From IMG/VR virus record IMGVR_UViG_3300017716_001697, positions 1-64,000 of that record: 64,000 bases of DNA; one strand, written 5' to 3'. Shown here one piece after another: positions 9,190 to 33,780 of the stretch. The stretch comes from a virus (lineage: Duplodnaviria; Caudoviricetes). The notes under the pieces were generated by a model. It did no database searches. It was not told the DNA's origin and saw only the letters and a list, made by a program, of their open reading frames with translations. The position numbers and the translations under genes are program-made. The number at the start of each line of letters is the position of its first letter. Within the stretch, counting starts at the first letter, position 1.

Positions 9190-9304
9190 AGGTTTGGTTC
9201 AGCAATAATTAAATTTTTTTCAACAAAAAAGGATCTGGGTTCGAATCCCAGCGGTAGATTTAGTCACTACTGTCGTCTAATGGTAGGATTTAAAAACAAA
9301 CCTG
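9190..9304 (+). ncRNA. CAGCA-motif RNA with YrlA-like permuted tRNA domain
   Basis: AGGTTTG-G-TTCAGCA...CAAACCTG enclosing T arm, looped acceptor hairpin and D arm. Confidence 0.65.
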
Positions 9305-9425
9305 TTTTATTTTTATTAGTTGATATAGTCGCGCAGGAGTAAATAGATTATTATACTGCCTCTTTCCTTAATTGTTATTAACAATTAAACAGCATTGACG
9401 ATATATCAACTAAACTTTTCTTTAT

Positions 9426-9499
9426 GGTGTCTCTGATGTAGTGGTAGCACTTCTGTCTGTGAAACAGAAAGCCAGGGTTCGATTCCCGGATTCACCCCA
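9426..9499 (+). tRNA. tRNA-His(GTG)
   Basis: Loop CTGTGAA, G-1/C73, CCA. Confidence 0.8.
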
Positions 9500-9712
9500 T
9501 TTTTGGTTGTTTAGCTCAGATGAGAGCACGGAAGAGACCTCTCTTATGATGTTGGTCTACGGGGTCGCAGAAGTAATGCCCTGCAACAACTAACGATTTT
9601 ATGCCGTCGTCATTATCCGGAGCAAATCCTTCCGGGTTATAAATGATACAAGGTCCCTAGATGCTGGGATATATTGCGGGTTAGATTCCCGCCGGTGGGA
9701 GCCAATTTTTAT

Positions 9713-9786
9713 GTACCGTTGTCCGAGAGGTTAGGTAGCAGATTGCAAACCTGTTCAGAGTGGTTCGATTCCACTACGGTACTCCA
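9713..9786 (+). tRNA. tRNA-Cys(GCA)
   Basis: Loop TTGCAAA, U73, CCA. Confidence 0.85.
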
Positions 9787-9805
9787 TCTTTTTAGAATAA
9801 TATTT

Positions 9806-9991
9806 ATGAATCAAATTGACATAGAAAATAAAATCAATGATGCAGTTGCTATCTTAATTGCGTATAGCGGCGATGGTAGAGATACATGGGTATCTAATTA
9901 CGACACAATTTTAGATTTATACAGAAGATTAAATACATGCCCGGAGAGTGCAGCTGGTGAAGCCATCCTCCTTACAAGTGGAAACATGTAG
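9806..9991 (+). CDS. Small hypothetical protein overlapping tRNA-Val
   Basis: ATG at 9806; last codons run through the tRNA. Confidence 0.4.
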   Translation: MNQIDIENKINDAVAILIAYSGDGRDTWVSNYDTILDLYRRLNTCPESAAGEAILLTSGNM

Positions 9992-10016
9992 AGTTCGATT
10001 CTCTATCCGGGTACCA
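9939..10016 (+). tRNA. tRNA-Val(TAC)
   Basis: Loop CTTACAA, CCA. Confidence 0.8.
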
Positions 10017-10021
10017 AATTA

Positions 10022-10176
10022 CGCGAGATAAAGACCGTTTGGGACGGGGACCGGATTGTTGACCGGCGTCGGATAAAGCAACGAGCTGCGGTGACTTATA
10101 GAAGGGCCCTTTTATTTGTTGCTTAAAATTTCAGTACGCTCCGACTTCAGTGGTTCGATTCCACATCTTGCGGCCA
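10022..10176 (+). tRNA. Giant tRNA-Asn(GTT)-like with ~90-nt variable-arm insert
   Basis: Acceptor CGCGAGA/TCTTGCG plus GCCA; loop TTGTTGA; T arm; folded insert. Confidence 0.55.
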
Positions 10177-10180
10177 AATT

Positions 10181-10277
10181 TTGTTTAGTGTAATGGTAGC
10201 ACGGGGAAGTCCGAGACACGGAAGTGGAGTAGGCAATCAAATGCCCTGAGGTGGTTCGATCCCACCAGCAAATTCAA
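10181..10277 (+). pseudogene. tRNA-like element with replaced anticodon arm
   Basis: D arm AGTGTAATGGTAGCAC and T arm GGTGGTTCGATCCCACC; no CCA. Confidence 0.45.
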
Positions 10278-10278
10278 T

Positions 10279-10621
10279 TTCAACATTCGAGCTAACGCTG
10301 GCAACAGAGGAAGTTCGGGACAAGCGCCAAGGGCGTGTGGGAGAGTGGTTATTTGATGGGGCATAGTGTCGGCCGGCTCAAATCTAATACGGAGTTGTTA
10401 GAAGCCAAGCAGAGATTTATCATCAAGCTAGATCCGCAAGGATGACAAAAGGTTCCTGAGACGGGTTCAACTCCCGGATGCTCCACCAAATAACTACTTG
10501 TTACACCACCGTGATACAGCTTGCAACACAAACAGAACCTGGGAACTCTTGGCTTATAGGTTCGGGTTGTGGCAAAGATTAATGTTAGCATAGAACAGAA
10601 TCCCGGCTACGGAATGTTGAA
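10279..10621 (+). ncRNA. rnpB: RNase P RNA (type-A catalytic domain)
   Basis: P1, P2 (GCTAAC/GTTAGC), P3, CR-I GAGGAAGTTCGGG, P5 CAAGC/GCTTG, P6 GCCAAG/CTTGGC, P15-16 with GGT, CR-IV AGATTAAT, CR-V ACAGAATCCCGGCTA. Confidence 0.85.
10358..10488 (+). ncRNA. Ala-acceptor tRNA/tmRNA-like domain nested in the RNase P RNA
   Basis: GGGGCAT/ATGCTCC with G3-U70, ACCA, GAC-GGGTTCAACTCCC T arm. Confidence 0.7.
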
Positions 10622-10629
10622 AACTTATA

Positions 10630-10707
10630 TGCTCGTCTACGCTAATTGGTAGTGCGACCTGTTTCAAACACAGATGGTTCTCGGTTCGAATCCGAGGTCG
10701 AGCACCA
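10630..10707 (+). tRNA. tRNA-Leu(CAA), short variable loop
   Basis: Loop TTCAAAC; 5-nt variable region; CCA. Confidence 0.75.
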
Positions 10708-10711
10708 CATT

Positions 10712-10804
10712 TGATTTATAGACAAACGGAATTCATGTACAGATACTTGATCAGCGGGCCCTGCAACGCTGTAAGTGACAACGCTGTATCTTCTCCCTAA
10801 ATCA
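10712..10804 (+). ncRNA. 'stem-TA...C-stem' element
   Basis: TGATTTA-TA...C-TAAATCA with inner helices. Confidence 0.4.
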
Positions 10805-10813
10805 TTTTATTAC

Positions 10814-10902
10814 GGGTTGTTAATGGGACGACTTAAGTCGTGTACTATGTATGCGCCGTCAGACCGGTCTTACAGTTGGTTCAAGTCCGACGCAACTCTC
10901 CA
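10814..10902 (+). pseudogene. tRNA-like element, atypical core
   Basis: Acceptor GGGTTGT/GCAACTC, T arm, CCA; no canonical anticodon arm. Confidence 0.45.
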
Positions 10903-10981
10903 TTTAAACTGTTAATACCAATATTGAAGACATTGGTTTACTTACAACCGTGATCGACCGGTGCAGTTTCTTTTAGTTTAC

Positions 10982-11029
10982 GGGCCGCCTTAAGTTTCTA
11001 TTTGACTATATACCCAGTCCGGTCCACCA
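10982..11029 (+). ncRNA. 48-nt Ala-type minihelix RNA
   Basis: GGGCCG/CGGTCC with G3-U70 and ACCA. Confidence 0.45.
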
Positions 11030-11059
11030 ACACGATAAATACATGTTTAAGGAATTAAC

Positions 11060-11296
11060 ATGCGAGCAGAAGAATTTATAACCGAAGCACTTGATGCTAC
11101 ACCGTTTATTGAATTAGTTCATACCGCGCAGGGTTATCTTACACAGTTATTTAAGAAAGGCATTGGCGATAGATCTGCGGTATCATCTGTTATTGATATA
11201 TTGCATACACGTGGCGTAGATCATGCCAAAGCCGCTCAAGCAGCTAAAAAAGCTTTTACTAATATTAAAGGTAGTGACGTGACTACTGAAGAATAA
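11060..11296 (+). CDS. Late hypothetical protein (MRAEEFITE N-terminus)
   Basis: ATAAATA and AAGGA upstream. Confidence 0.75.
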   Translation: MRAEEFITEALDATPFIELVHTAQGYLTQLFKKGIGDRSAVSSVIDILHTRGVDHAKAAQAAKKAFTNIKGSDVTTEE

Positions 11297-11299
11297 GAC

Positions 11300-11328
11300 T
11301 TGACATTACTGTAAATTACGTATATAAT
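11300..11328 (+). promoter_or_regulatory. sigma70-type promoter
   Basis: TTGACA-N17-TATAAT. Confidence 0.8.
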
Positions 11329-11339
11329 AAATACTACAC

Positions 11340-11413
11340 GGGCTGCTTCATGCTTTCAAGTAGAGAATACTTGGGCCGTCTAACAGTCGGGTCGCGCCCG
11401 TCGCGGTCCACCA
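11340..11413 (+). ncRNA. tRNA-sized Ala-acceptor RNA with non-canonical arms
   Basis: GGGCTGC/GCGGTCC with G3-U70 and ACCA, just after a promoter. Confidence 0.55.
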
Positions 11414-11582
11414 TATAATAGTCTGTATACGAGAGAATAATTGCGCGGAACAGACTCCCTTTTTTAGTTGCAAATAGACTGTCATGCATGATACACTTCC
11501 GTAGTGCATGATCAACGTATACGACTACTTCGGGTATAGATCCAGGGAAGTGCAGCTAATTTTAATTTAACTTAAGGATAAC

Positions 11583-12795: not shown

Positions 12796-12830
12796 TAAGA
12801 TAAATATTGAATACTACAGAGACTAACTAT

Positions 12831-13469
12831 ATGTTTTCATTATTTAAGAAATTTATTGCACCTGTTAAGCCACCGTTAGACGCTGGCCCTACCTATATAG
12901 ACCAGTCTAGAATGACGTTCGAAGAACGCAAGACATGGCGTCAGGGGATGATGCACAAGTCAATTAAAGAAGTATTTTCGGATTTAGAAATCATTAGTGG
13001 AATGTATCGATATCGTGCTTTGCCGATTGACGAACGTGGTCATTATTATGTTATAGTAATAGAAACAACACGGCATTTTGCCCTTAGCAAACATATATCT
13101 ACACAGAAATTATCGCAAATTGAGGTGACATTAAAGTCACAAACATTTGAAAATTATGGTCTTATAGTAGACGGCGTCTACTGGAAAGCTAACGAGACAA
13201 TTGATGTATTTGATAAGGCGCTTACACCTAAACAGTCAATTAGATCGCAAAAAACAATAGAAGATTTACATGCAAGTTTTTGTGATACTCAACCGATGAG
13301 TTATGACACATTACTGGAAACTGATCCAGAAACAGGTAAACGTGTGTTCGATCCGTTAACTGAAGATGAAGCTCGTGCATTTAAAGCTGCATTAGCTACA
13401 GGATTAGGTACATATAATTTGAAAGTTGGTGGCAAAGTGTATGACACAGATATTGCCCCGCTAAGTTAA
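12831..13469 (+). CDS. Hypothetical protein
   Basis: ~212-aa ORF after ATAAATA. Confidence 0.7.
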   Translation: MFSLFKKFIAPVKPPLDAGPTYIDQSRMTFEERKTWRQGMMHKSIKEVFSDLEIISGMYRYRALPIDERGHYYVIVIETTRHFALSKHISTQKLSQIEVTLKSQTFENYGLIVDGVYWKANETIDVFDKALTPKQSIRSQKTIEDLHASFCDTQPMSYDTLLETDPETGKRVFDPLTEDEARAFKAALATGLGTYNLKVGGKVYDTDIAPLS

Positions 13470-17383: not shown

Positions 17384-19231
17384 ATGCGTAAAAAGAATGT
17401 ATATTTGCTGTCGATTCCGTCAGCCACACCGCTCTACTTGCCACTATTTTGGGCCAGTGCAAAGACATACTACGAGACTCACGGCAAATACCCAGACGAG
17501 TATAATTGGGTATTACCATATGCTGAGTTCATGGTTGGCTTGGATGCAATTAAGAAAGCAATAACGAACAATCCACCTGATATATTTGGGATCAGTCTGT
17601 ACGTCTGGAATTATACTATGAGCATGGAATTATGCAGTTGGGTTAAAGAGACTTGGCCTCATTGCATAGTTATAGTAGGTGGCCCTCATCAATACGTTAC
17701 ATTTCAGTCAGATTTCTTTCTTAGGTGCACTTTTGTAGATGCATGTTCCCCAGATACGGCGTACGGTGAATTAGTAATGACAGATTTATTAGACAATATA
17801 CAGGACGACGGTACAGTAAATTGGGGAAATGTTGAACAAATTCTTTATCCGTCAAAGCAACGTGGTATGATATTAACGGGGACCAAGAAAACTCGTGCAA
17901 GTGAATTTGACTGGTCCTTTAGCGCATATTCAGCACAATTGGCTAGTATGCATAGATACGTTGATATTAAAAAAATATGCAGGCCTAATGCCTCGTTGGG
18001 CATCAGGATAGAAACCACCCGTGGTTGCCCATATCAGTGCACATATTGCGATTGGGGCGGTACGCTAGGTTCTAAAATGGCTAAAAAAACAGATGATGCA
18101 ATTAATGGTGATCTTAGTGTGTTATCTCTTGCTGAATTTGATATCTCCATCATTCATTTCTGTGATAGTAATACAGGCATCTTTGGTAAGAGAGATGTCG
18201 ACACATTTAGACTAATGGTGGAAAAGACTAACTGCCTTGGTGATAATCGCCCCGTAGTAAATATCTCAGGATGGGCAAAATCAACTGTGCATCTTAAATA
18301 CATCAAAGAAATATTAGAGGTGACAGCATCAACGGGATTAATTGATGCACTAAAAATCTCGATACAGACATTCGATTCGTCATCGTTGGTTAATGTAAAG
18401 AGGACTGACATAGCAGCAGATGAATATTTTATGTTAGGTGATTATGCCAGATCTCTAGGATGCACCATAATAGCTGAAATGATAATGGGGTTTCCTGGAC
18501 TAACACTAGACAAGTTCTATAAAGAATTTGATCAACCGTATGAGCGCGATATTGAAGTTAGGTTCTACGAATGGCAATTGCTTCCACAATCCGAAGCATA
18601 TTCGCCGGACTATCGAAAACAATTTAAACTTGGTACAGCAGTGAATAATAACAGGACACCGGAATCTATATTCAATATAGCCAACGAAACAGTGGTAGAA
18701 TCTTATTCATATTCGAGAAATGATTATGCAGAGATGATGACTGTATATTCATTATATATTCTTATCACCATAGGGGAAATATATTCTAAATCCATACAAC
18801 AATTGCTTGACAGAAACGGCTGGCGCATAAGCGATTTCTTAAAAGAATTTCACCATACATGCTATCCGCTTCTAGAGGCAGTTAACGGTAAGAATAATGC
18901 AGCATTCAGGGAGCGTAAGATAGCCCATACCACAGTAAAGGACTCGACAAGCTCTTCACTGAGCACAATTTACTCGCTTCTGTTATTAGAAGATTTTTGG
19001 GAAGAAACAGAAACGCAGGCACCTATAATCCGAGCATGGTTGTTAGCTGAAGGCGCAGAGTCGAGTACCGTTGATTCCGAGTATCTAGAATTAACCACTC
19101 TTACAGAAGATGTTATCGTTGCACGCCGCGCGCGATTTATTGATGCTAATAAAATTCGAACCAAGAAGAAGATTGACAAATCTTTATTCACTAACAGCCT
19201 GGCCTCGACGCACGGGCTAAATGCTAGATGA
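17384..19231 (+). CDS. B12-binding-type radical SAM protein
   Basis: PDIFGISLYVWN N-terminal domain; ETTRGCPYQCTYCDW. Confidence 0.85.
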   Translation: MRKKNVYLLSIPSATPLYLPLFWASAKTYYETHGKYPDEYNWVLPYAEFMVGLDAIKKAITNNPPDIFGISLYVWNYTMSMELCSWVKETWPHCIVIVGGPHQYVTFQSDFFLRCTFVDACSPDTAYGELVMTDLLDNIQDDGTVNWGNVEQILYPSKQRGMILTGTKKTRASEFDWSFSAYSAQLASMHRYVDIKKICRPNASLGIRIETTRGCPYQCTYCDWGGTLGSKMAKKTDDAINGDLSVLSLAEFDISIIHFCDSNTGIFGKRDVDTFRLMVEKTNCLGDNRPVVNISGWAKSTVHLKYIKEILEVTASTGLIDALKISIQTFDSSSLVNVKRTDIAADEYFMLGDYARSLGCTIIAEMIMGFPGLTLDKFYKEFDQPYERDIEVRFYEWQLLPQSEAYSPDYRKQFKLGTAVNNNRTPESIFNIANETVVESYSYSRNDYAEMMTVYSLYILITIGEIYSKSIQQLLDRNGWRISDFLKEFHHTCYPLLEAVNGKNNAAFRERKIAHTTVKDSTSSSLSTIYSLLLLEDFWEETETQAPIIRAWLLAEGAESSTVDSEYLELTTLTEDVIVARRARFIDANKIRTKKKIDKSLFTNSLASTHGLNAR

Positions 19232-19771
19232 TGTATCGAATACAAGGAATGTTAAATCTTTGGTTGAGTTGTTTTTGTATGCGTGTGGCGCCCTGGCATT
19301 GAAATCTACAATACTATACCTGAACTCGTCTACTGTTTTAAATTCATCATCCATGTATATACTTGCATCACTGGGTATATCTAAGTAAAGTTGATAACGG
19401 TGTGCCACTATGTCGAAATATGGACCGGTGGAATCGGTATGTTTATCAATTGATTCGTCCGGCTGTAGCTTGTGCCAGAACACTCTTAGTACTGTTTCAT
19501 TGCCGGCAATTCTGTTGATTATGCCATTAATGACAGGAAACATATTTAATCGGTCGACTAGTATAATATGTGCACGATCAACAATCTGCAACCAACATGT
19601 CTTGCCGTGTCTTAGTGCTCCGGTTCGGTTGTAAGTATCTGCATACTCACCCCAGTGCTCTCTAAAGACATGTTGTCCCCACCAGTCGGCATCTATTGCA
19701 GACAATTCGTTGTTAATGTTATGCACATCGGATGTGCTTAGTTTTTCTATAATAGTGGATTTTACAATCAT
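19217..19771 (-). CDS. Aspartyl/asparaginyl beta-hydroxylase-like oxygenase
   Basis: IDKHTD...PHAYKN. Confidence 0.65.
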   Translation of the reverse strand: MIVKSTIIEKLSTSDVHNINNELSAIDADWWGQHVFREHWGEYADTYNRTGALRHGKTCWLQIVDRAHIILVDRLNMFPVINGIINRIAGNETVLRVFWHKLQPDESIDKHTDSTGPYFDIVAHRYQLYLDIPSDASIYMDDEFKTVDEFRYSIVDFNARAPHAYKNNSTKDLTFLVFDTSSSI

Positions 19772-19777
19772 ACTAGC

Positions 19778-19800
19778 TATTTATCATGTGGTGATAAATA
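19778..19800. promoter_or_regulatory. Back-to-back ATAAATA late-type promoters
   Basis: TATTTAT and ATAAATA between divergent genes; same arrangement at 29323-29355. Confidence 0.65.
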
Positions 19801-19811
19801 CATGATAACTG

Positions 19812-20102
19812 ATGAGGACTAACATGTATACAGTAACTAGAGTTGACACACGCCCTGATGTCAATGTGCCATTTTTCACAATAACTGCAACTCCCGATAC
19901 AACGGCGCTAATTGCCGAAGTAACTATCGAGACAACGGTATCACCTGATGGGTTAGTACAGACAAATAACTTCACCTGGCCTACGCAGGAACTATTTGTT
20001 CTGTTTATTAACAATTCATTTATTATACAAGACGTTGTGGCACCGCGCATTAACTACAATGCAGCTAACATGATAACATCGGCGTTTACTTACCCTGTCT
20101 AG
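19812..20102 (+). CDS. Hypothetical late protein
   Basis: GAGG RBS, ATAAATA upstream. Confidence 0.7.
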   Translation: MRTNMYTVTRVDTRPDVNVPFFTITATPDTTALIAEVTIETTVSPDGLVQTNNFTWPTQELFVLFINNSFIIQDVVAPRINYNAANMITSAFTYPV

Positions 20103-20108
20103 TAACTA

Positions 20109-20801
20109 ATGAAAATAGGATTCTATGGGCATAGTATAGCTAGCTGGGCGAATAGTCCGAACAATGAAAGTTTTATCGACAAGATAAGATTGAAATATTC
20201 AGCTGACATTGTTAACCTTGGCGTACCACAGGGCAGTGAGGAACGAATTCTGTTTGACCTAAAGAAGACCAAAGAGATAGATGTGGCAATTATATTCCAC
20301 AGTCTAATAAGATATATTTTTATTCCCGGTGCAGACAGAGACCTAAGCATACGTACTGTTCCAGCCAAGAAGGCTGGCGTATTGTGGACAGAAAGTAATA
20401 TGCAGGTACCCACACAAGAGCAATTTGATAAAGAATTTTTTTCGTATTCAAATCTTAAAGATGTGTTTGGAACGCCAGAAGAATTTTGTAATGCAATGAT
20501 TACATATAAGGAATATTTTCATCACCCGGATCTTTTAACTAACAGATTTCATTCTGCTGTCTTGTTGATCGACAATTACCTGTTAAATAAGAATATAACA
20601 GTATTGCACGCTATAACACCAAATCCGGCAATATTCCCGGCGTGGCTAGAAATTAAATCAGGTACAGTAGATTCCGAATTATTACCGATGTCGGGTAAAA
20701 TGTCGATAGTGGGTGAGAAATTTCCTAATAATCTTGATGCTGCCGGCAATGATTTTGTGTTTGATAGAATAGACTCCTGGTTACAACGCAGTTCGTGGTA
20801 G
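20109..20801 (+). CDS. SGNH/GDSL-like hydrolase or acyltransferase
   Basis: IGFYGHS...NLGVPQGS... Confidence 0.5.
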   Translation: MKIGFYGHSIASWANSPNNESFIDKIRLKYSADIVNLGVPQGSEERILFDLKKTKEIDVAIIFHSLIRYIFIPGADRDLSIRTVPAKKAGVLWTESNMQVPTQEQFDKEFFSYSNLKDVFGTPEEFCNAMITYKEYFHHPDLLTNRFHSAVLLIDNYLLNKNITVLHAITPNPAIFPAWLEIKSGTVDSELLPMSGKMSIVGEKFPNNLDAAGNDFVFDRIDSWLQRSSW

Positions 20802-20861
20802 AGAGGTCATACGCCGGTGTGAAATCCCGGAGACGGAGGTTCGAATCCCCCGGCTGCTCCA
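20788..20861 (+). tRNA. tRNA, probably Phe(GAA), overlapping a CDS stop
   Basis: Anticodon arm like tRNA-Phe at 8451; T arm; CCA. Confidence 0.55.
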
Positions 20862-20870
20862 TTTATACAA

Positions 20871-21323
20871 ATGATTGAACTTATTCAAATAAATTTTGAT
20901 GATATACTATCTGTGTGGTCTACTAAATTGTGGCCTACACGGACATCGACTATAGAATCACACAGTGCGATGATTTATAATTCTGATAAATTCGATACAG
21001 GTAATTTTTTATTGCCGGCCTGGTATTATGGGTTATATGAGGATAATACGCTAATAGGAGTCAACAGCGGCCACCTGTGCACCGATGGTAGTACAAGGTC
21101 GCGTGGACTTTGGGTCGATCCCGAATACCGCGGAAAAGGTTATGGAAAATTATTGTTGTGTGCTATAATACATGTTGCAATAACGGCTGACTCTAAATTC
21201 TTGTGGAGTTTTCCACGAAAGACATCATGGCATACGTACGAATCTGCGGGATTTATCTTAACCTCAGAGTGGTCCAGCAGTGAGACAAGCGATGCCAATG
21301 CTTATTGCTATCTAACATTTTAA
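20871..21323 (+). CDS. GNAT acetyltransferase
   Basis: GLWVDPEYRGKGYGKLL acetyl-CoA motif. Confidence 0.85.
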   Translation: MIELIQINFDDILSVWSTKLWPTRTSTIESHSAMIYNSDKFDTGNFLLPAWYYGLYEDNTLIGVNSGHLCTDGSTRSRGLWVDPEYRGKGYGKLLLCAIIHVAITADSKFLWSFPRKTSWHTYESAGFILTSEWSSSETSDANAYCYLTF

Positions 21324-21333
21324 CCTGAATTTT

Positions 21334-22860
21334 ATGCCTGTAAATGCACTTATTTTTACGCAAGTTATGCAGACGCAATATGCGTATAGTCGAGCCCTGG
21401 GCGCATACCGGGTTGCTACAGAAATACGCAAGGCAGGATATACATGCCAGGTTATTGATTTATTTACGAAATTTTCTGATGAAGAAATGGACAAGATTCT
21501 TCATTCGTTTATTGGTACCGAGACACTGATGGTGGGATTTTCTGCAACATTCTACGAATATGTAGACGAGAGATTAGACACAATGCAGCAAGAGATATCG
21601 GGCAAGACAACACAGGTGCCCAATGCACATACCTTTACATTGAACTATCCGTATCATCAAGAACGCATGAAAATATGGTTTTCGAAGATGCGAGCCATAA
21701 ACCCTAATATAAAGATTGTGTTGGGCGGGTCAAAAGCAGGGAATCTTACAGGCGATTGTGATGCATACGCCGTAGGATATTGCGATCAGGCTACTGTTGA
21801 ATACATGAAATACCTTGATAAGAAGAATCCGTTTTTTCAATTTGAAACTATAAATGATAAGCAAATCGCATTCTATGGCGATAAATATACATCAAAATTT
21901 GAATTCACTACTAGCACAGTAGATTGGCACGAGAGTGATTATATTATGCATAATGAGACACTGCCTATAGAATTGGCTAGGGGGTGTATATTCAGCTGTA
22001 AGTTTTGTAGTTATCCGTTAAACGGCAAGAAAAAATTAGATTTTATAAAGACAGATAATGTGCTCAGGGATGAATTCTTGAGAAATTACAACGAATTCGG
22101 CATAACGAGGTATGTATATTGCGATGATACACATAATGATTCTGTTGAAAAATTGGAACGATTACATAAGGTTGCGACCAGTTTACCATTTGAAATTGAA
22201 TATGCAGCATACCTGAGGCACGATTTGATATATGCACATAAAGAGACTGCGGTACTATTGCGGGAATCCGGTCTACGATCTGCCATATTTGGTATCGAAA
22301 CATTAAACCACGAATCGGGTAAGGCAATTGGTAAAGGTATGCATCCTGAAAAATTAAAAGAGATGTTATATTGGCTAAGAGAGGACGTATGGAAGAACGA
22401 TGTGGCAATGGGTTCGGGATTTATTGTTGGGCTCCCGCATGATACACCGGAAACAATTAATGAATGGTCAAAATGGCTGCTTGATAAATCGTGCCCAATT
22501 GACTCATTTCACTTTGAACCATTGTACATAACAAACACGAAGATACATAACAAATTATGGAAATCTGAATTTGAAAAATCGTCAGACAAGTATGGCTATA
22601 AATTAGGAAAGAATGGATTCTGGGAAAACGAACACTATACATTTCACACAGCCGCCACGCACGCAAAACAATTGTTGAAGATTGCGTTTGATAACGACAG
22701 GTTTAGGTGCGCCGGATTTCCTATAATTATGTTCGCTAATCTAGGATTGGTTCCGAAAGATCTAATCGGTGTCAGTAGAACATCTATATTTAGGCAGGTA
22801 GAACAATTAAATAAAGCGTATATCGATCAGTATAAGGTTAGGTTACTTAACAACTTATGA
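21334..22860 (+). CDS. B12-binding-type radical SAM protein
   Basis: ELARGCIFSCKFC; DDTHND; FGIETL. Confidence 0.85.
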   Translation: MPVNALIFTQVMQTQYAYSRALGAYRVATEIRKAGYTCQVIDLFTKFSDEEMDKILHSFIGTETLMVGFSATFYEYVDERLDTMQQEISGKTTQVPNAHTFTLNYPYHQERMKIWFSKMRAINPNIKIVLGGSKAGNLTGDCDAYAVGYCDQATVEYMKYLDKKNPFFQFETINDKQIAFYGDKYTSKFEFTTSTVDWHESDYIMHNETLPIELARGCIFSCKFCSYPLNGKKKLDFIKTDNVLRDEFLRNYNEFGITRYVYCDDTHNDSVEKLERLHKVATSLPFEIEYAAYLRHDLIYAHKETAVLLRESGLRSAIFGIETLNHESGKAIGKGMHPEKLKEMLYWLREDVWKNDVAMGSGFIVGLPHDTPETINEWSKWLLDKSCPIDSFHFEPLYITNTKIHNKLWKSEFEKSSDKYGYKLGKNGFWENEHYTFHTAATHAKQLLKIAFDNDRFRCAGFPIIMFANLGLVPKDLIGVSRTSIFRQVEQLNKAYIDQYKVRLLNNL

Positions 22861-23402
22861 TAGAAGCATCCAAGACAATTTATCTATCTAACATATACAT
22901 AGACCGCATGGTACGTAATATATCTAGTATATTACATGATTGCAGGTTAATGGAGATAGAACGATATTATATGTTTTCTCGTGATGTGAATGGGTGTTCT
23001 CTAGCTCAGGCAAGAAATAACTCTATCGAGTTAGATATTCAAGTGTCAAAACTCATTGCTGCATTATCTGCTGACCCACTATTATCTGGCATGACAATTG
23101 TTGAGCAGGGTATTGCGTTTAACAATCAGAACCCTGGCAGGATAATAAATGATCGCGTAGAGGCGTATCATCTTTTAGATACTACTGCCAGACAAGTAAG
23201 GGTACAGATATCCGGAACATCAATGATAGGCAGAGATATGTTGATCACTGGTAATGCATACATTGTGGATAATGTGACACATAATCAGTTCTTCGCATCG
23301 GATCAATGCATGCAATTGGTATTTAATTATCTTAGCATCACCGAGACAAGAAAACCGTGGGAATTATGGAAATCTAGTACAGGAGAGATACATGGGAGTT
23401 AA
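22857..23402 (+). CDS. Hypothetical protein (possible degenerate oxygenase fold)
   Basis: Translationally coupled ORF in island. Confidence 0.6.
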   Translation: MIEASKTIYLSNIYIDRMVRNISSILHDCRLMEIERYYMFSRDVNGCSLAQARNNSIELDIQVSKLIAALSADPLLSGMTIVEQGIAFNNQNPGRIINDRVEAYHLLDTTARQVRVQISGTSMIGRDMLITGNAYIVDNVTHNQFFASDQCMQLVFNYLSITETRKPWELWKSSTGEIHGS

Positions 23403-24939
23403 TGCGGTAATATTTACTGATTATTCGGCTCGGGGATTTATTAGATACAGCGGTGCATACACAATTGCATCTGTATTAAGAGAACACGGGTATACAGTTC
23501 AGGTCATTGATTATTTCTTGCTAGCAGGCCCTGATCGTGTAAACGCGGCTATCGACAAATATGTCGGCAGTGAAACATTATTTGTGGGATTTTCTACAAC
23601 ATTTATGAATTTGTTTTCAGACTATATAGAGGAATCGAAAGTAAATGACTCTATGTACAATTTCCACAATATTGTTAAAGTAGGATACGGGGCATCATCG
23701 GTGCCCGGATTCGCATTCGGCGTGCCATTGTCGGACATAGACATGGATGCGCTAAAACGCCGAATACAGAATTTAAATCCTAAGACTAAATTAGTAATGG
23801 GTGGCGGCAAAGCCGAATTCCATAAACAAAAGCAGATGGATGCATTTATATTAGGGTATGCAGACAATTCTATAATACAATATGTTAGATTCCTTGAAGG
23901 CAAGAATCCATTCTTCCAATATACTGACCTAGGAAACAACCAGATATCGGTTGATAAGGATATAGATGCTACAGGGTACGATTTCGTTCATGCAGCAACA
24001 AGATATCATGAGAGTGATATGATACGCCCTGGCGAATTATTGCCAATTGAAATTAGTAGGGGATGCATATTTAAGTGCAAATTTTGTGCCTTCAGGATGA
24101 TCGGTAGAAAGAAGAATGATTACACAAAAACAACTGACACCTTGTATGCAGAGATGATGTACAATTATGAAAAATTTGGGACAACTAAATATTCATTCGC
24201 TGATGACACGTACAATGAATCTGTACAAAAGATAACAGATCTTGCTGAGATGTTTCGGCGACTGCCGTTTAAGATAGAATTTGTTGCATACTTGAGACAT
24301 GATCTTATTCATCGGTATCCTGAGATGGCGGATATACTTAAAGAGAGCGGATTGAAGACCGCGGTCTTCGGTATAGAAACACTCAATCATGAATCCGGTA
24401 AAATAATTGGAAAAGGATTGCACCCCGAGAAGACACGGGAAATGCTACAATGGTTAAGAGATGATAAAAAATGGAAAAATGATATAATAACCCATTCTGG
24501 GTTTATTATAGGTCTGCCCAAAGATTCCAGGGATTCGGCAAATAAATGGATAGAAGAATTGATGGATTTTAAATATCCATTAGACACGTTTACTATAAAT
24601 TCCCTTAATTTAAGGCCTACAGCAACACGACTATCTAAATCTGAATTCGAATTAAATTATAAGGATTATGGATATTATTTCGATCCAAGTAAGTCTGCTA
24701 GCTGGATAAATGAATACTGGCAATTCGAAGATGCTCATATGCTTGCTGAATCTATGCAATCGTACGCTGATCACATGGGCAGAACAAAATTGCGGGCATG
24801 GCAACCAATGACTATGCGTAATTATGGGTACGATTGGGAGTACATAAATCATGTATCATCATCAGCATTTAACAAAGATATCTTTTACAAAACCGTCGAG
24901 TGGGCAGACGATTATTATAAGAAAATATTATCAGCATGA
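23392..24939 (+). CDS. B12-binding-type radical SAM protein (paralogue of 21334)
   Basis: EISRGCIFKCKFC; DDTYNE; FGIETL. Confidence 0.85.
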   Translation: MGVNAVIFTDYSARGFIRYSGAYTIASVLREHGYTVQVIDYFLLAGPDRVNAAIDKYVGSETLFVGFSTTFMNLFSDYIEESKVNDSMYNFHNIVKVGYGASSVPGFAFGVPLSDIDMDALKRRIQNLNPKTKLVMGGGKAEFHKQKQMDAFILGYADNSIIQYVRFLEGKNPFFQYTDLGNNQISVDKDIDATGYDFVHAATRYHESDMIRPGELLPIEISRGCIFKCKFCAFRMIGRKKNDYTKTTDTLYAEMMYNYEKFGTTKYSFADDTYNESVQKITDLAEMFRRLPFKIEFVAYLRHDLIHRYPEMADILKESGLKTAVFGIETLNHESGKIIGKGLHPEKTREMLQWLRDDKKWKNDIITHSGFIIGLPKDSRDSANKWIEELMDFKYPLDTFTINSLNLRPTATRLSKSEFELNYKDYGYYFDPSKSASWINEYWQFEDAHMLAESMQSYADHMGRTKLRAWQPMTMRNYGYDWEYINHVSSSAFNKDIFYKTVEWADDYYKKILSA

Positions 24940-30052: not shown

Positions 30053-30526
30053 ATGAACAAGATATTCGCACTATCGATTGTTATAAGTTTATTGTGCCAT
30101 ATCGGTGTTGTTATATCTGCGATTACACCGCAAGAACCGATTAGTACTAGTGTTACAGCGCCAGAGAACCGAATGGCAATTAAGCTATTACCACCAGAGC
30201 AGTTAGCAACGATACGACCAGCATTTTTAAAATCTGATGAATATTATAAGCCGACGCACCATCCGTATAGCAAAGAAGGGATTTGTGAAGGCAAGGATAA
30301 GAATTACATCGGTATTGGCATGATGATTCAGCCCGGAACACGGTTGGTAATTAATGTGCCAGAGATGTATCCTGCGTATCGAGCAGGCATTCGGGTAAAT
30401 GATGTCATTGTGGACCCGTACGGTCCTGTAATTGACCGTGCCGGTTATATTGAATTCGGGGTAGAACGGGACAATGTTATATCTCGTGTACGAATCAAGG
30501 CAGAAAAGATATGTTATACTGGATAG
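30053..30526 (+). CDS. Membrane-anchored PDZ-like protein
   Basis: N-terminal hydrophobic segment; PAYRAGIRVNDVI. Confidence 0.55.
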   Translation: MNKIFALSIVISLLCHIGVVISAITPQEPISTSVTAPENRMAIKLLPPEQLATIRPAFLKSDEYYKPTHHPYSKEGICEGKDKNYIGIGMMIQPGTRLVINVPEMYPAYRAGIRVNDVIVDPYGPVIDRAGYIEFGVERDNVISRVRIKAEKICYTG

Positions 30527-30554
30527 TTGACACCTTAACGCTAAGTAGTATAAT
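30527..30554 (+). promoter_or_regulatory. sigma70 promoter of tmRNA
   Basis: TTGACA-N16-TATAAT. Confidence 0.75.
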
Positions 30555-30560
30555 AAAGGT

Positions 30561-30848
30561 ACTGTTGTAATCCCTTCGAAGCGAAGGCAGGCAAGACGCG
30601 GGTTCGAATCCCGCCAGGTCCACCAAAATCATATTCGAAAAATAAAATCCATAACACGTTATGGTGTGAGTATGATTCTGATGGGCCTGCTCCGGAAATC
30701 GATTGCGTGAGATAGTAGAGACGGCAACACGAGAGGCGATGGACGTAATCCAAGCAAAACTAGTAAATGCAAACGCAGATACATTCGCTCTTGTAGCCTA
30801 AGAAACTCAAAGCTGAGGTAGGACTTACCTTATAACCAAAACAACCAA
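30561..30848 (+). ncRNA. ssrA: Circularly permuted two-piece tmRNA
   Basis: Acceptor piece ends GACGCGGGTTCGAATCCCGCCAGGTCCACCA (30625); hairpin spacer; coding piece starts GGGCCTG (30683); tag ANADTFALVA* at 30769-30801. Confidence 0.92.
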
Positions 30849-30849
30849 T

Positions 30850-30872
30850 GGGGGCTTCGGCCCCTATTTTTA
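30850..30872 (+). terminator. Terminator after tmRNA
   Basis: GGGGC-TTCG-GCCCC plus T-run. Confidence 0.85.
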
Positions 30873-30918
30873 TGAATATAATGGTGTTTATTATATTAAA
30901 AATATAGATAAATATAGG

Positions 30919-33704: not shown

Positions 33705-33780
33705 GCGCCTTTAGCTCAGTTGGTAGAGCAGCGGATTCTAAATCTGTAGGTCAGGGGTTCGAGTCCCCTATCGCGCACCA
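33705..33780 (+). tRNA. Amber-suppressor tRNA (CTA)
   Basis: GCGGA-TTCTAAA-TCTGT anticodon arm; canonical D and T arms; CCA; two acceptor mismatches. Confidence 0.8.

Follow-up and report, generated by a model that had tools for sequence, protein, structure and literature searches.

A mobile tmRNA-like RNA gene nested in a phage RNase P RNA that lacks the specificity domain

An RNase P RNA gene of a bacteriophage carries within it a gene for a 131-nt alanine-type tRNA-like RNA, which resembles the tRNA-like domain (TLD) of tmRNA. The TLD and the helix that clamps it make up a cassette that is mobile and has landed at three sites of RNase P RNA genes; since it recurs at three sites it is not a one-off accident. 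We give about even chances to the reading that this is a nested gene, from which a 5' cut by RNase P together with 3' trimming would release an Ala-accepting tmRNA-like RNA, possibly CDS-less, and leave a clamped two-piece ribozyme. The window referred to below is the whole stretch of DNA that was analysed, 64,000 nt in length.

The host gene lies within a tRNA array on the + strand and is present as a single copy in the 364.6-kb phage genome. The source is a huge phage from freshwater. The first-pass annotation had taken the host RNA to be RNase P RNA, and this is borne out by an Rfam match over 10279-10621 and by covariation over 21 sequences. The match, a glocal one to RNaseP_arch (27.8 bits, E 5.6e-6), is below the gathering score of 84, and its alignment has a 197-nt insert in place of all 137 S-domain model positions. 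The helix pair counts given below are based on an alignment (A3) of 21 RNase P-like relatives, over which the fold is 94.8% paired, against 32-42% in slid controls, with double changes in 49 of 69 pairs. The features of the host RNA are as follows.

10278-10622, + strand: phage-type RNase P RNA gene without S-domain (Rfam match, covarying helices)
10278-10288 with 10612-10622, + strand: P1 (double changes in 11/11 pairs)
10291-10296 with 10584-10589, + strand: P2 (98-100% paired, covaries)
10298-10307, + strand: P3 hairpin (98-100% paired, covaries)
10307-10319, + strand: CR-I and P4 5' strand (GAGGAAGUUCGGG), with bulged U10314, read from sequence
10312-10319 with 10602-10608, + strand: P4 (100% paired in 21 sequences, two covarying pairs)
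10321-10325 with 10519-10523, + strand: P5 (double changes in 4/5 pairs)
10326-10333 with hairpin loop 10546-10553, + strand: P6 pseudoknot (double changes in 7/8 pairs)
10337-10340 with 10506-10509, + strand: P7 (A-U to G-C covariation)
10337-10343, + strand: P7 5' strand, then GGAG preceding the variable S-site
10499-10523, + strand: 3' flank of the S-site, made up of the P7 3' strand, conserved CCGUGAUA and the P5 3' strand
10530-10535, + strand: J5/15-like AAACAG (invariant in 21 sequences)
10535-10540 with 10558-10563, + strand: P15/16 hairpin, whose loop forms P6 (covaries)
10563-10569, + strand: CGGGUUG (invariant in 21 sequences)
10565-10567, + strand: candidate CCA-binding GGU (predicted), inside CGGGUUG
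10574-10589, + strand: CR-IV (AAAGAUUAAUGUUAGC), containing the P2 3' strand
within 10574-10610, + strand: CR-V (ACAGAAUCCCGGCUAC), the P4 3' strand

The content of the core is type-A-like, with P1-P7, the P4 and P6 pseudoknots, CR-I, CR-IV and CR-V and an L15-like GGU. P1, P2, P3, P5 and the CR-IV junction are found in canonical order with 91-100% of cells paired, and most of their pairs have double changes. The CGGGUUG and AAACAG motifs around the P15/16 hairpin are, we assume, placed as in the L15 motif of E. coli. P4 has compensatory changes from G-C to A-U and from G-C to C-G, and is made up as expected for the RNase P clan (CL00002), of a GAGGAAAGUCC-like CR-I and a CR-V of the pattern ACAGAA..CCGGCU, with a bulged U. 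In the P6 pseudoknot the strand that follows P5 pairs with the P15-17 arm at its loop, as in bacterial type A. The S-domain with CR-II/CR-III (T-loop motifs, which contact the tRNA elbow) is absent at the locus and only 6-17 nt are found there in relatives. Judged from its sequence, the host gene thus encodes RNase P RNA that has a bacterial type-A-like catalytic domain and lacks a specificity domain; in one account (PMC5839562) the C-domain alone is described as catalytic.

RNAs of this kind score poorly with the Rfam models. The best relatives reach 37-44 bits where the gathering scores (RF00373/RF00010) lie at 84 to 100, and the minimal relatives match RNaseP_arch and RNaseP_bact_a with E values of 1e-8 to 1e-10. 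At gathering thresholds Rfam detects neither the ribozyme nor the TLD in the 64-kb window. A search with the CR-IV and CR-V pattern matched 55 IMG/VR contigs, while among cultured phages BLAST found the ribozyme only in Stenotrophomonas phage DLP_6, whose copy lies at about 105,770-106,020 of KU682439.2, is unannotated and gets no match from Rfam. A first combined DNA pattern had given no related loci, and none were found that carry the neighbouring ORF (12807-13469). The region is overlapped only by ORFs of ≤80 aa, promoters and terminators at the element do not exceed shuffled expectation, and rnpA was not found in the phage genome. The phage ribozyme probably works with host RnpA on the phage's 40-odd CCA-encoding tRNAs.

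Two known classes of RNase P RNA resemble the phage RNA. Type T of the Thermoproteaceae (Pyrobaculum and relatives) likewise keeps the catalytic domain and essentially lacks the specificity domain, and its minimal form of ~200 nt is missed by standard RNase P models (PMC3579882). Type T is archaeal, however, whereas the phage core is bacterial type A-like (P6 pseudoknot, L15-like AAACAG/GGGU, CR-IV/V sequence), is virus-encoded in tRNA arrays and has made of the stub hairpin a hypervariable cargo site. With the bacterial type A C-domain (RF00010) the phage RNA shares P1-P5, its P4 and P6 pseudoknots and CR-I/IV/V, besides a candidate GGU motif, and two relatives, L070 and L035, match the RF00010 model over the full length (E 5e-10 and 3e-8, respectively). 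Unlike bacterial type A it has no P8-P14 and no CR-II/III, stays at 27-44 bits, below the gathering scores (84 to 100), and has no phage rnpA.

The cassette sits at the tip of the S-site hairpin in the window, and its parts are the following.

10344-10498, + strand: cassette of 155 nt, made up of a 12-bp clamp helix, an AU linker and the TLD gene
10344-10355 with 10487-10498, + strand: AU-rich clamp helix of 12 bp (11 Watson-Crick pairs and one G.U)
10356-10357, + strand: linker A10356, U10357 (U at -1)
10358-10488, + strand: TLD RNA, like the tRNA-like domain of tmRNA, 131 nt (model R1, 151.8 bits)
10358-10364 with 10478-10484, + strand: acceptor stem of 7 bp (G10360.U10482 is G3.U70)
10376-10378 with 10408-10410, and 10383-10388 with 10397-10402, + strand: TLD hairpin 1
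10409-10431, + strand: 23-nt block (GCAGAGAUUUAUCAUCAAGCUAG), invariant in all ten TLD copies
10432-10435 with 10440-10443, + strand: TLD hairpin 2
10460-10476, + strand: T arm (stem 10462-10465 with 10473-10476, loop TTCAACT, GAC before; stem covaries)
10485 and 10486-10488, + strand: A73 and CCA, the 3' end of the TLD

The clamp helix, acceptor, G3-U70, ACCA, T arm and U at -1 named in the first-pass annotation are thus all where it had placed them. It had further described the insert as a well-formed Ala-type tRNA-/tmRNA-like substrate of RNase P with a partly sequestered CCA, and the anatomy and nine covarying copies agree: C10487 and A10488 (C75 and A76) form base pairs of the clamp helix. 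The T arm is that of a tmRNA TLD: its loop fits UUCRANY, GAC stands in front of the arm, and there is no anticodon arm. The Rfam tmRNA model (RF00023) matches only the two ends of 10358-10488 (16.5 bits, E 2e-4; gathering score 47). No tRNA was called there by ARAGORN or the Rfam tRNA model, and there is no cloverleaf with D and anticodon arms. Two simple hairpins are found in the 131 nt instead of PK1-PK4 of full tmRNA, none of which is present.

A covariance model of the 131-nt element found nine further copies (101-160 bits), so that a chance resemblance is out of the question. The TLD helices are paired in 94.9% of cells, against 36-47% in slid controls, with double changes in 13 of 24 pairs, and the acceptor and T-arm features are retained across the copies. 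G3.U70 is invariant in 9 distinct TLD copies and pairs 2:71 and 6:67 covary. The TLD of L093 has compensatory changes at both pairs yet retains G3.U70, A73 and CCA, which argues that alanine identity is under selection; the nested copies, on the other hand, are recent (84-93% identical to one another), so that the conservation of charging determinants could reflect short divergence and not selection. In L039 a G4.U69 wobble is found instead of G4-C69. The invariant 23-nt block is predicted to pair with the invariant 5' GUGUAGGUC, neither side of which varies; at ≤4 mismatches, neither another copy of the block nor a complement to it turned up in the phage genome.

A tag reading frame with conserved start and stop was not found among the TLD copies. 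Frames beginning at GCA/GCC are without a stop in L004 and L093, and only one frame, closed by the invariant UAG (...RDLSSS, then stop), is open and terminated in all copies; its start is not conserved. SmpB (PF01668) was not found in the phage genome. These two negatives make any role proposed for the released RNA speculative. The TLD had no BLAST match in cultured phages and was not found with two patterns in 185,579 bacterial species representatives. Four bacterial matches to a looser TLD pattern are due to chance (L096, which was inspected, falls within a coding region), and the T4 RNAs rnaC and rnaD were rejected as relatives as they do not match model R1.

Three of the ten distinct TLD copies stand free in phage tRNA arrays (L004, L032 and L093); the other seven lie inside genes for RNase P RNA. 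The nested copies occupy three different sites of these genes, every one of them brings the same clamp helix, and the arrangement of the window recurs in two independent IMG/VR contigs (L033 and L039). The clamp helix has compensatory changes at positions 2 and 5, from which it follows that its pairing is selected. The free TLD of L032 is 90-93% identical to nested copies. The S-site itself is hypervariable, holding 6 to 156 nt and many unrelated cargos across relatives. Cores 91-99% identical to that of L039 have a 6-nt loop or a different cargo there, contigs from other metagenomes omit exactly 10344-10499 and have 16-18 other letters instead, and the TLD is absent from four near-complete related genomes. 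Homologous phage genes share the insertion only in part: seven copies are nested, at three sites, but near-identical cores are without it. L032 has, besides its free TLD gene, another acceptor-like cargo at the S-site (GGGGUUUG...CAAACUCCACCA). The S-site cargos of L030, L044, L057, L059, L091, L092 and L035 gave no Rfam match at relaxed thresholds, and other cargos were rejected as independent genes as every one is unique in the data set. ARAGORN found no nested canonical tRNA in any family member.

The suggestion that the element replaces the S-domain is not upheld. The whole phage family is without an S-domain, and the TLD does not stand in for one because near-identical cores have only a 6-nt loop at its place (6-17 nt over all such cores) and related contigs skip the cassette.

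Assembly chimerism was also considered. A Logan contig from the probable source sample, made by an independent assembler, has 0 differences across the region at a depth of 65, a contig of another study covers the 3' junction (10474-10701) and nested copies are present in six other contigs, with L033 and L039 in agreement. Both Rfam matches are below their gathering scores, and short pieces of the tmRNA 3' end are found as attachment sites in phages (H2, H3), which would be in keeping with a tmRNA-like/RNase P chimera, a chance resemblance or an attP-type tmRNA fragment. The second assembler and the other study's contig nonetheless agree on the junction, the acceptor is there with both its halves, which covary, and the clamp helix is complementary across both junctions. 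An artefact is refuted by these contigs and by the covariation, and has practically no chance of being the explanation.

The context of the putative cleavage site resembles that of the phage's own precursors. The base at -1 is U in 34 of 43 phage pre-tRNAs and -2/-1 is AU in 25 of 43, such that the AU before the TLD is the phage's own leader consensus; CCA is encoded in 41 of the 43 tRNAs. The phage also has a permuted tmRNA gene:

30513-30892: the phage's own permuted tmRNA gene (RF01850/RF04321)

In the precursor of this tmRNA an 11-bp leader/trailer helix comes after the CCA, with UGAU/GGG next, and two internal cuts are needed, with the same geometry as at the TLD junction. The halves of the ribozyme that excision would leave are predicted to cofold with a ddG of ~-20 kcal/mol, pseudoknots uncounted.

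Release of the insert, leaving a two-piece ribozyme, had been proposed in the first-pass annotation and is the most economical reading, given the free-standing genes, the AU leader and the permuted tmRNA junction. The self-cleavage and activity switch that it had also suggested are putative. The array transcript would be processed like the other members of the tRNA array: RNase P (that of the host, the phage ribozyme or both, with the ribozyme acting in cis or in trans) would cut between U10357 and G10358, and an endonuclease and 3' exonucleases would trim back to A10488. The freed RNA would be charged with alanine and, maybe without a tag CDS, could compete for SmpB and the ribosome or act in untagged rescue, while the halves of the ribozyme would be held together by the clamp helix and P1, P2, P4, P5, P6 and P7. 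Against this reading, pairing of C75 and A76 and the double-stranded trailer should in bacterial systems slow both docking of RNase P (CCA with the L15 GGU) and 3' exonucleolytic trimming. The nested gene is favoured because the TLD is also an independent gene in L004, L032 and L093; because the ribozyme does not need the insert, as seen in the cores with a 6-nt loop, the contigs that skip the cassette and the genomes that lack the TLD; because the host RNA has an RNase P core with strong covariation; because the cleavage-site context of the TLD matches the phage's pre-tRNAs; because a permuted tmRNA precursor in the same genome needs the same two cuts; and because the halves left after excision are predicted to cofold, the C-domain is reported to be catalytic alone in PMC5839562, and the phage has no rnpA or smpB. 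It also speaks against the nested gene that RNase P RNA genes hold seven of the ten TLD copies, with three independent sites of insertion, a hint of some functional link that goes further than co-transcription. In a bolder form, which we consider doubtful, the ribozyme would cut its own cassette in cis, giving an Ala-accepting tmRNA-like RNA and a two-piece enzyme with altered activity, and the cassette would colonise RNase P RNA genes specifically, at at least three sites.

The TLD might instead never be released and be a covalently attached accessory domain of the ribozyme, which would account for its non-random association with RNase P RNA (seven of ten copies, three insertion sites, one clamp helix), for C75 and A76 being paired and the trailer locked in the 12-bp helix, and for the other acceptor-like cargo at the S-site of L032, next to a free TLD gene. 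Such a domain might be a built-in pseudo-substrate or a regulator of the active site, or might serve as a handle for SmpB, EF-Tu, AlaRS, modification enzymes or the ribosome; in a variant, a 5' cut alone would split the ribozyme and free no chargeable 3' end. We think this unlikely, as free-standing copies 90-93% identical to nested ones exist, nearly identical cores dispense with the domain for a 6-nt loop or unrelated cargo, closely related contigs miss it, and the AU at -2/-1, G1, G3.U70, A73 and CCA are retained, none of which an internal structural domain needs. Less probable still is that the cassette is a selfish or neutral mobile RNA gene, for which the hairpin tips of RNase P RNA are tolerant landing sites that guarantee transcription; nesting would then do nothing for the ribozyme, and in some of the nested copies decay may have set in. 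The hypervariable S-site with its many unrelated cargos of 6-156 nt, the sporadic occurrence of the cassette, the G4.U69 wobble that replaces G4-C69 in L039 and the conservation of the TLD above that of host cores (84% identity between the window and L029, against 62% for the 5' core) are consistent with such an element. Three independent landings in a gene of ~200-450 nt would, however, be unlikely by chance, no homing endonuclease, transposase or repeat signature is found in the flanks, the pairing of the clamp helix is selected, and the nested copies have kept all their structural and identity elements intact.

Several known RNAs are comparable to the nested TLD. The tmRNA of mycobacteriophage DS6A consists of a TLD only, CDS-less tmRNAs occur in organelles, and a TLD-only molecule of comparable kind is reported to inhibit tmRNA, perhaps through titration of SmpB (PMC4131195, PMC11915505). 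The DS6A RNA is likewise phage-encoded with little beyond an Ala-type tmRNA TLD, a likeness drawn from its description, but the TLD of the window has 131 nt, two extra hairpins and the invariant 23-nt block, and its copies are mostly nested in another RNA gene. As in two-piece (permuted) tmRNA, an internal CCA end and an internal G1 would both have to be freed from a single transcript, and an AU-rich leader/trailer helix lies next to the acceptor stem with the leader UGAU/GGG; in the tmRNA, however, a loop is excised and the tmRNA becomes two-piece, whereas here the tRNA-like part would leave and the ribozyme would become two-piece. GOLLD RNA (bioRxiv 10.1101/2024.12.08.627333) is also a large structured phage RNA near tRNA islands, sometimes with tRNAs covalently linked in its variable linker region, but it has no known function and does not process its guest, while here a substrate-like guest lies inside RNase P. 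Tethering of substrate to ribozyme is known from engineered cis-cleaving pre-tRNA-RNase P RNA conjugates (M. jannaschii RPR-pre-tRNAGln, PMC3378863). Those are laboratory constructs with a tether near the active site, whereas the phage arrangement is natural, with a 12-bp helix at peripheral hairpins, and cleavage in cis is putative. The first-pass annotation knew of no described equivalent. In line with this, the literature search turned up no publication on RNase P RNA encoded by phages, none on RNase P RNA with a tRNA-like gene inside it, and no case in nature in which the gene of a processing enzyme harbours that of an RNA resembling its substrate; on natural two-piece RNase P RNAs it gave nothing useful.

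RNase P RNA is treated as a cellular housekeeping ribozyme. The minimal form without an S-domain is virus-borne and common, being present in one cultured phage and in no fewer than 55 IMG/VR contigs, and standard annotation does not see it. The finding makes it possible to ask what part of RNase P suffices in vivo, if a two-piece RNase P of natural origin is functional, by what route small structured RNA genes pass from one RNA gene to another and how phages use tmRNA mimics. Access to the ribozyme family is offered by the cultured Stenotrophomonas phage DLP_6, and the cassette is amenable to in vitro transcription. If the bolder reading, with cleavage in cis, is true, the arrangement would amount to a ribozyme-substrate fusion of natural origin that processes itself and ties tRNA-processing capacity to the control of ribosome rescue during infection.

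The cassette (window 10344-10498) lies within the phage RNase P RNA gene (10278-10622, + strand) and contains a 131-nt RNA (10358-10488) resembling the tRNA-like domain (TLD) of an alanine-type tmRNA. The elements described for it in the first-pass annotation were all located where stated:

10344-10355 with 10487-10498 (+): 12-bp clamp helix, one G.U
10356-10357 (+): two-base linker A10356-U10357, placing U at -1
10358-10364 with 10478-10484 (+): Ala-type acceptor, G3.U70
10485-10488 (+): A73 and CCA, the last two bases pairing within the flanking helix
T arm (+): loop UUCAACU, preceded by GAC

That the surrounding gene is an RNase P RNA was borne out by the Rfam model, which matches 10279-10621 with the entire specificity domain (S-domain) swapped for a 197-nt insert (27.8 bits, E 5.6e-6), and by covariation of the core fold in 21 members. 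The tmRNA model matches 10358-10488 with its two ends (16.5 bits, E 2e-4); both matches were obtained at relaxed thresholds and fall under the Rfam gathering scores. At default thresholds there was no Rfam match in this region, and ARAGORN made no call there.

Contigs of four public runs were compared with window 9300-11500, and the results argue against assembly chimerism, which had been raised as a concern. A 33.6-kb contig from the probable source sample showed no differences across the compared region, and a contig from a third study spans the 3' junction (10474-10701). In related contigs of two further studies, 10343/10344 and 10500-10523 are separated by only 16-18 unrelated letters, so that exactly the helix and the TLD are missing.

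Relatives of the ribozyme were collected via a neighbouring ORF and with a DNA pattern derived from CR-IV and CR-V; this pattern matched on 55 IMG/VR contigs. Judged by sequence and covariation, the gene at 10278-10622 encodes an RNase P RNA of a previously unrecognised phage family, with members of about 200 nt to more than 450 nt. Nearly all inspected copies lie in tRNA arrays, immediately 3' of a tRNA. In an alignment of 21 members, with the structure written from the window sequence, P1, P2, P3, P4, P5, P7, the P15/16 hairpin and the P6 pseudoknot (10326-10333 with hairpin loop 10546-10553) have 94.8% of cells paired, against 32-42% when partners are slid by 1-3 columns, and in 49 of the 69 pairs both partners change. 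P4 contains the bulged U, and CR-I, CR-IV and CR-V are near the bacterial consensus. The internal loop around P15/16 reads AAACAG and CGGGUU, candidate counterparts of the A248 region and the CCA-binding GGU of E. coli. Minimal members align over their full length to RNaseP_bact_a or RNaseP_arch (E 1e-8 to 1e-10) with just 37-44 bits; every member is under the Rfam gathering thresholds. Members of this S-domain-less family were found on no fewer than 55 viral contigs and in one cultured phage, Stenotrophomonas phage DLP_6, where the member lies beside a tRNA-Arg:

L085:1405-1655 (KU682439.2, about 105,770-106,020): DLP_6 member, unannotated
L034-L084, e.g. L058:6521-6722, L063:147-336, L070:211-412: IMG/VR family loci

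The variable hairpin tip where the S-domain would be (S-site) is bounded by conserved GGAG and YGUUA, and in minimal members it holds a 6-nt CGAAAG or an 8-nt hairpin. The suggestion that the element replaces the S-domain is not supported, as the whole family lacks one. Archaeal type T RNA likewise essentially lacks the S-domain (PMC3579882), but the phage core differs in being of bacterial type A. No RnpA is encoded by the window's phage, so the protein partner would be supplied by the host.

Searches with a covariance model of the TLD RNA (131 nt), together with scans for the invariant block within it, yielded ten distinct TLD copies:

Window, L033, L039: nested at the S-site
L029, L030, L092: nested at another hairpin tip, P18-like, in a larger, divergent ribozyme
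L091: nested at a third place, after conserved CCGUGAUAA, beside the P5 3' strand
L004, L032, L093: free-standing in tRNA arrays

Some homologous genes share the insertion, at the S-site in L033 and L039, and minimal members lack it. In L091 the S-site is occupied by another cargo. All nested copies share one type of clamp helix (AGURRYUAUUUG with CAAAUARYYACU), with compensatory changes at positions 2 and 5, and a 2-nt linker, AU or AC; the helix is absent from free copies. Over the TLD, the S-site copies, the third-site copy and the free copy of L032 are 90-93% identical to one another and 84-89% identical to the P18-site copies. The ribozyme 5' cores are far more divergent (62%, window versus L029). 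The L039 core shares 99% identity with the core of L059, whose cargo is unrelated. The cassette therefore moves between contexts faster than the ribozyme diverges and, on these comparisons, is discrete and mobile. No TLD was found in four related near-complete genomes or among 185,579 bacterial and archaeal species representatives.

The TLD folds into an acceptor, hairpin 1, hairpin 2 and a T arm. Across nine distinct copies the acceptor and T-arm features are kept, with 94.9% of cells paired (36-47% in slid controls) and double changes in 13 of 24 pairs. The most divergent copy, L093, has pairs 2:71 and 6:67 changed by compensation and retains G3.U70, A73 and CCA, as would be expected under selection for recognition by alanyl-tRNA synthetase. 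Over the whole set of copies, the 5' stretch GUGUAGGUCGGC has three variable positions only, and a 23-nt block (10409-10431) is invariant, with no other match or complement in the phage genome. Frames starting at GCA/GCC are stopless in two copies; the sole frame common to the copies is short and ends at the UAG of the block. The nearest described RNAs are the tmRNA of mycobacteriophage DS6A, which is TLD-only, and the organellar tmRNAs that have no CDS. The tmRNA database papers (PMC4131195, PMC11915505) report inhibition of tmRNA by a comparable TLD-only molecule, perhaps via SmpB titration. The window's phage encodes no SmpB. Directly upstream of the L033 ribozyme is a 48-nt minihelix (L033:286-333) with a GGGGUG...CACUCCACCA acceptor, G3.U70 and a T arm, a TLD-only tmRNA-like match of 21.7 bits.

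The full IMG/VR record (364,576 bp, direct terminal repeats), whose first 64 kb make up the window, indicates a huge phage. Its 43 tRNA genes and its permuted tmRNA gene are all encoded on the + strand; the TLD and the ribozyme gene are present in one copy each:

9939-10016 (+): tRNA-Val, first tRNA array, preceding the cassette-bearing ribozyme
10631-10707 (+): tRNA-Leu, following it
10091-10172 and 10179-10275: a pair of unannotated elements resembling tRNAs, with good T arms, just 5' of the ribozyme, found by ARAGORN only when its stringency is lowered, or the latter as a tRNA containing a 26-nt intron
17384-24939 (+): three paralogous radical-SAM proteins (615, 508, 515 aa), two with B12-binding domains, downstream of the tRNA array
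30513-30892 (+): permuted (two-piece) tmRNA gene, betaproteobacterial type, 145 bits, predicted tag ANADTFALVA
33705-33780 (+): tRNA with anticodon CUA ('Pyl' per ARAGORN), a candidate amber suppressor that could indicate TAG recoding in this phage

The S-site is, going by its contents (6 to 156 nt across the family, mostly unrelated sequence), a general cargo site, whose other cargos showed no recurrence within the data set and no Rfam match. Contents of individual members, including one at the P18-like hairpin:

L030:2311-2434; L044:3566-3708; L057:4787-4904; L059:2135-2263; L091:741-852; L092 (- strand, about 640-490); L035:925-1040: cargos of 75-190 nt, usually in long AU-rich helices
L032:4102-4214 (- strand): 9-bp helix, UGGGGUUUG with CAAACUCCA, a G.U at the G3.U70-like position, then CCA; has neither the 23-nt block nor a normal T loop; a free TLD gene lies 3 kb downstream
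L036, L049, L054, L065, L069: 41-nt tandem direct repeat (2 x about 17 nt, AAAUUUACUUUGGUAUU), no hairpin
L040:6933-6640 (- strand): member with a non-TLD cargo of about 130 nt at the P18-like hairpin, which therefore also takes non-TLD cargos

The L032, L044 and L057 cargos have in common a hairpin whose loop is GUGAAAG or GCGUAAUC and, after it, GGCA(G/A)A; this arrangement is reminiscent of the T-loop motif in CR-II of true S-domains.

The proposal that a substrate is embedded in its ribozyme is partly supported, in that the nested substrate and a likely two-piece outcome are plausible. We favour a nested gene whose product is processed out of the array transcript, because the TLD RNA is a stand-alone gene elsewhere, because the end-defining and charging elements are all intact in nested copies, and because the ribozyme, on comparative grounds, demonstrably does not need the insert. 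The linker AU is also the consensus at -2/-1 of the phage's pre-tRNAs (AU in 25 of 43, U at -1 in 34 of 43; CCA is encoded in 41 of 43). The cassette would be matured in tRNA fashion, leaving ribozyme halves of 80 and 134 nt that would be kept together by what is left of the clamp (10 bp) and by P1, P2, P4, P5, P6 and P7. The cut might be made in cis by the host ribozyme, the released RNA might be charged, and splitting might alter activity, as in the proposed switch. The halves are computed to cofold at about -20 kcal/mol relative to separate halves, pseudoknots excluded, and M1 RNA can be reconstituted from fragments. A further reason to favour the nested gene is that the phage's permuted tmRNA precursor has the same kind of junction: an 11-bp AU-rich leader/trailer helix (intervening segment) begins one base after CCA, and the leader reads UGAU then GGG. 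In two-piece tmRNAs both internal ends of such junctions are matured in vivo.

Against excision, C75, A76 and the trailer all lie in base pairs, and this should impede docking of RNase P as well as trimming of the 3' end. The cassette strongly prefers RNase P RNA genes, where it occupies three independent sites; this suggests a tie beyond co-transcription and keeps alive the readings of the TLD as an accessory domain, a pseudo-substrate or a selfish cassette.

Each part of the nested gene is of a known kind, namely an RNase P C-domain, a tmRNA tRNA-like domain and the leader/trailer helices of permuted tmRNAs. Some phage GOLLD RNAs carry tRNAs in a variable linker (bioRxiv 10.1101/2024.12.08.627333), and the described pre-tRNA-ribozyme conjugates (PMC3378863) are engineered; literature searches found no paper describing a phage RNase P RNA. 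What appears to be new is a virus-encoded RNase P RNA family without an S-domain, a substrate-like RNA gene nested within the gene of its own putative processing ribozyme, and a guest that, with its clamp helix, acts as a cassette at three positions of the host RNA.
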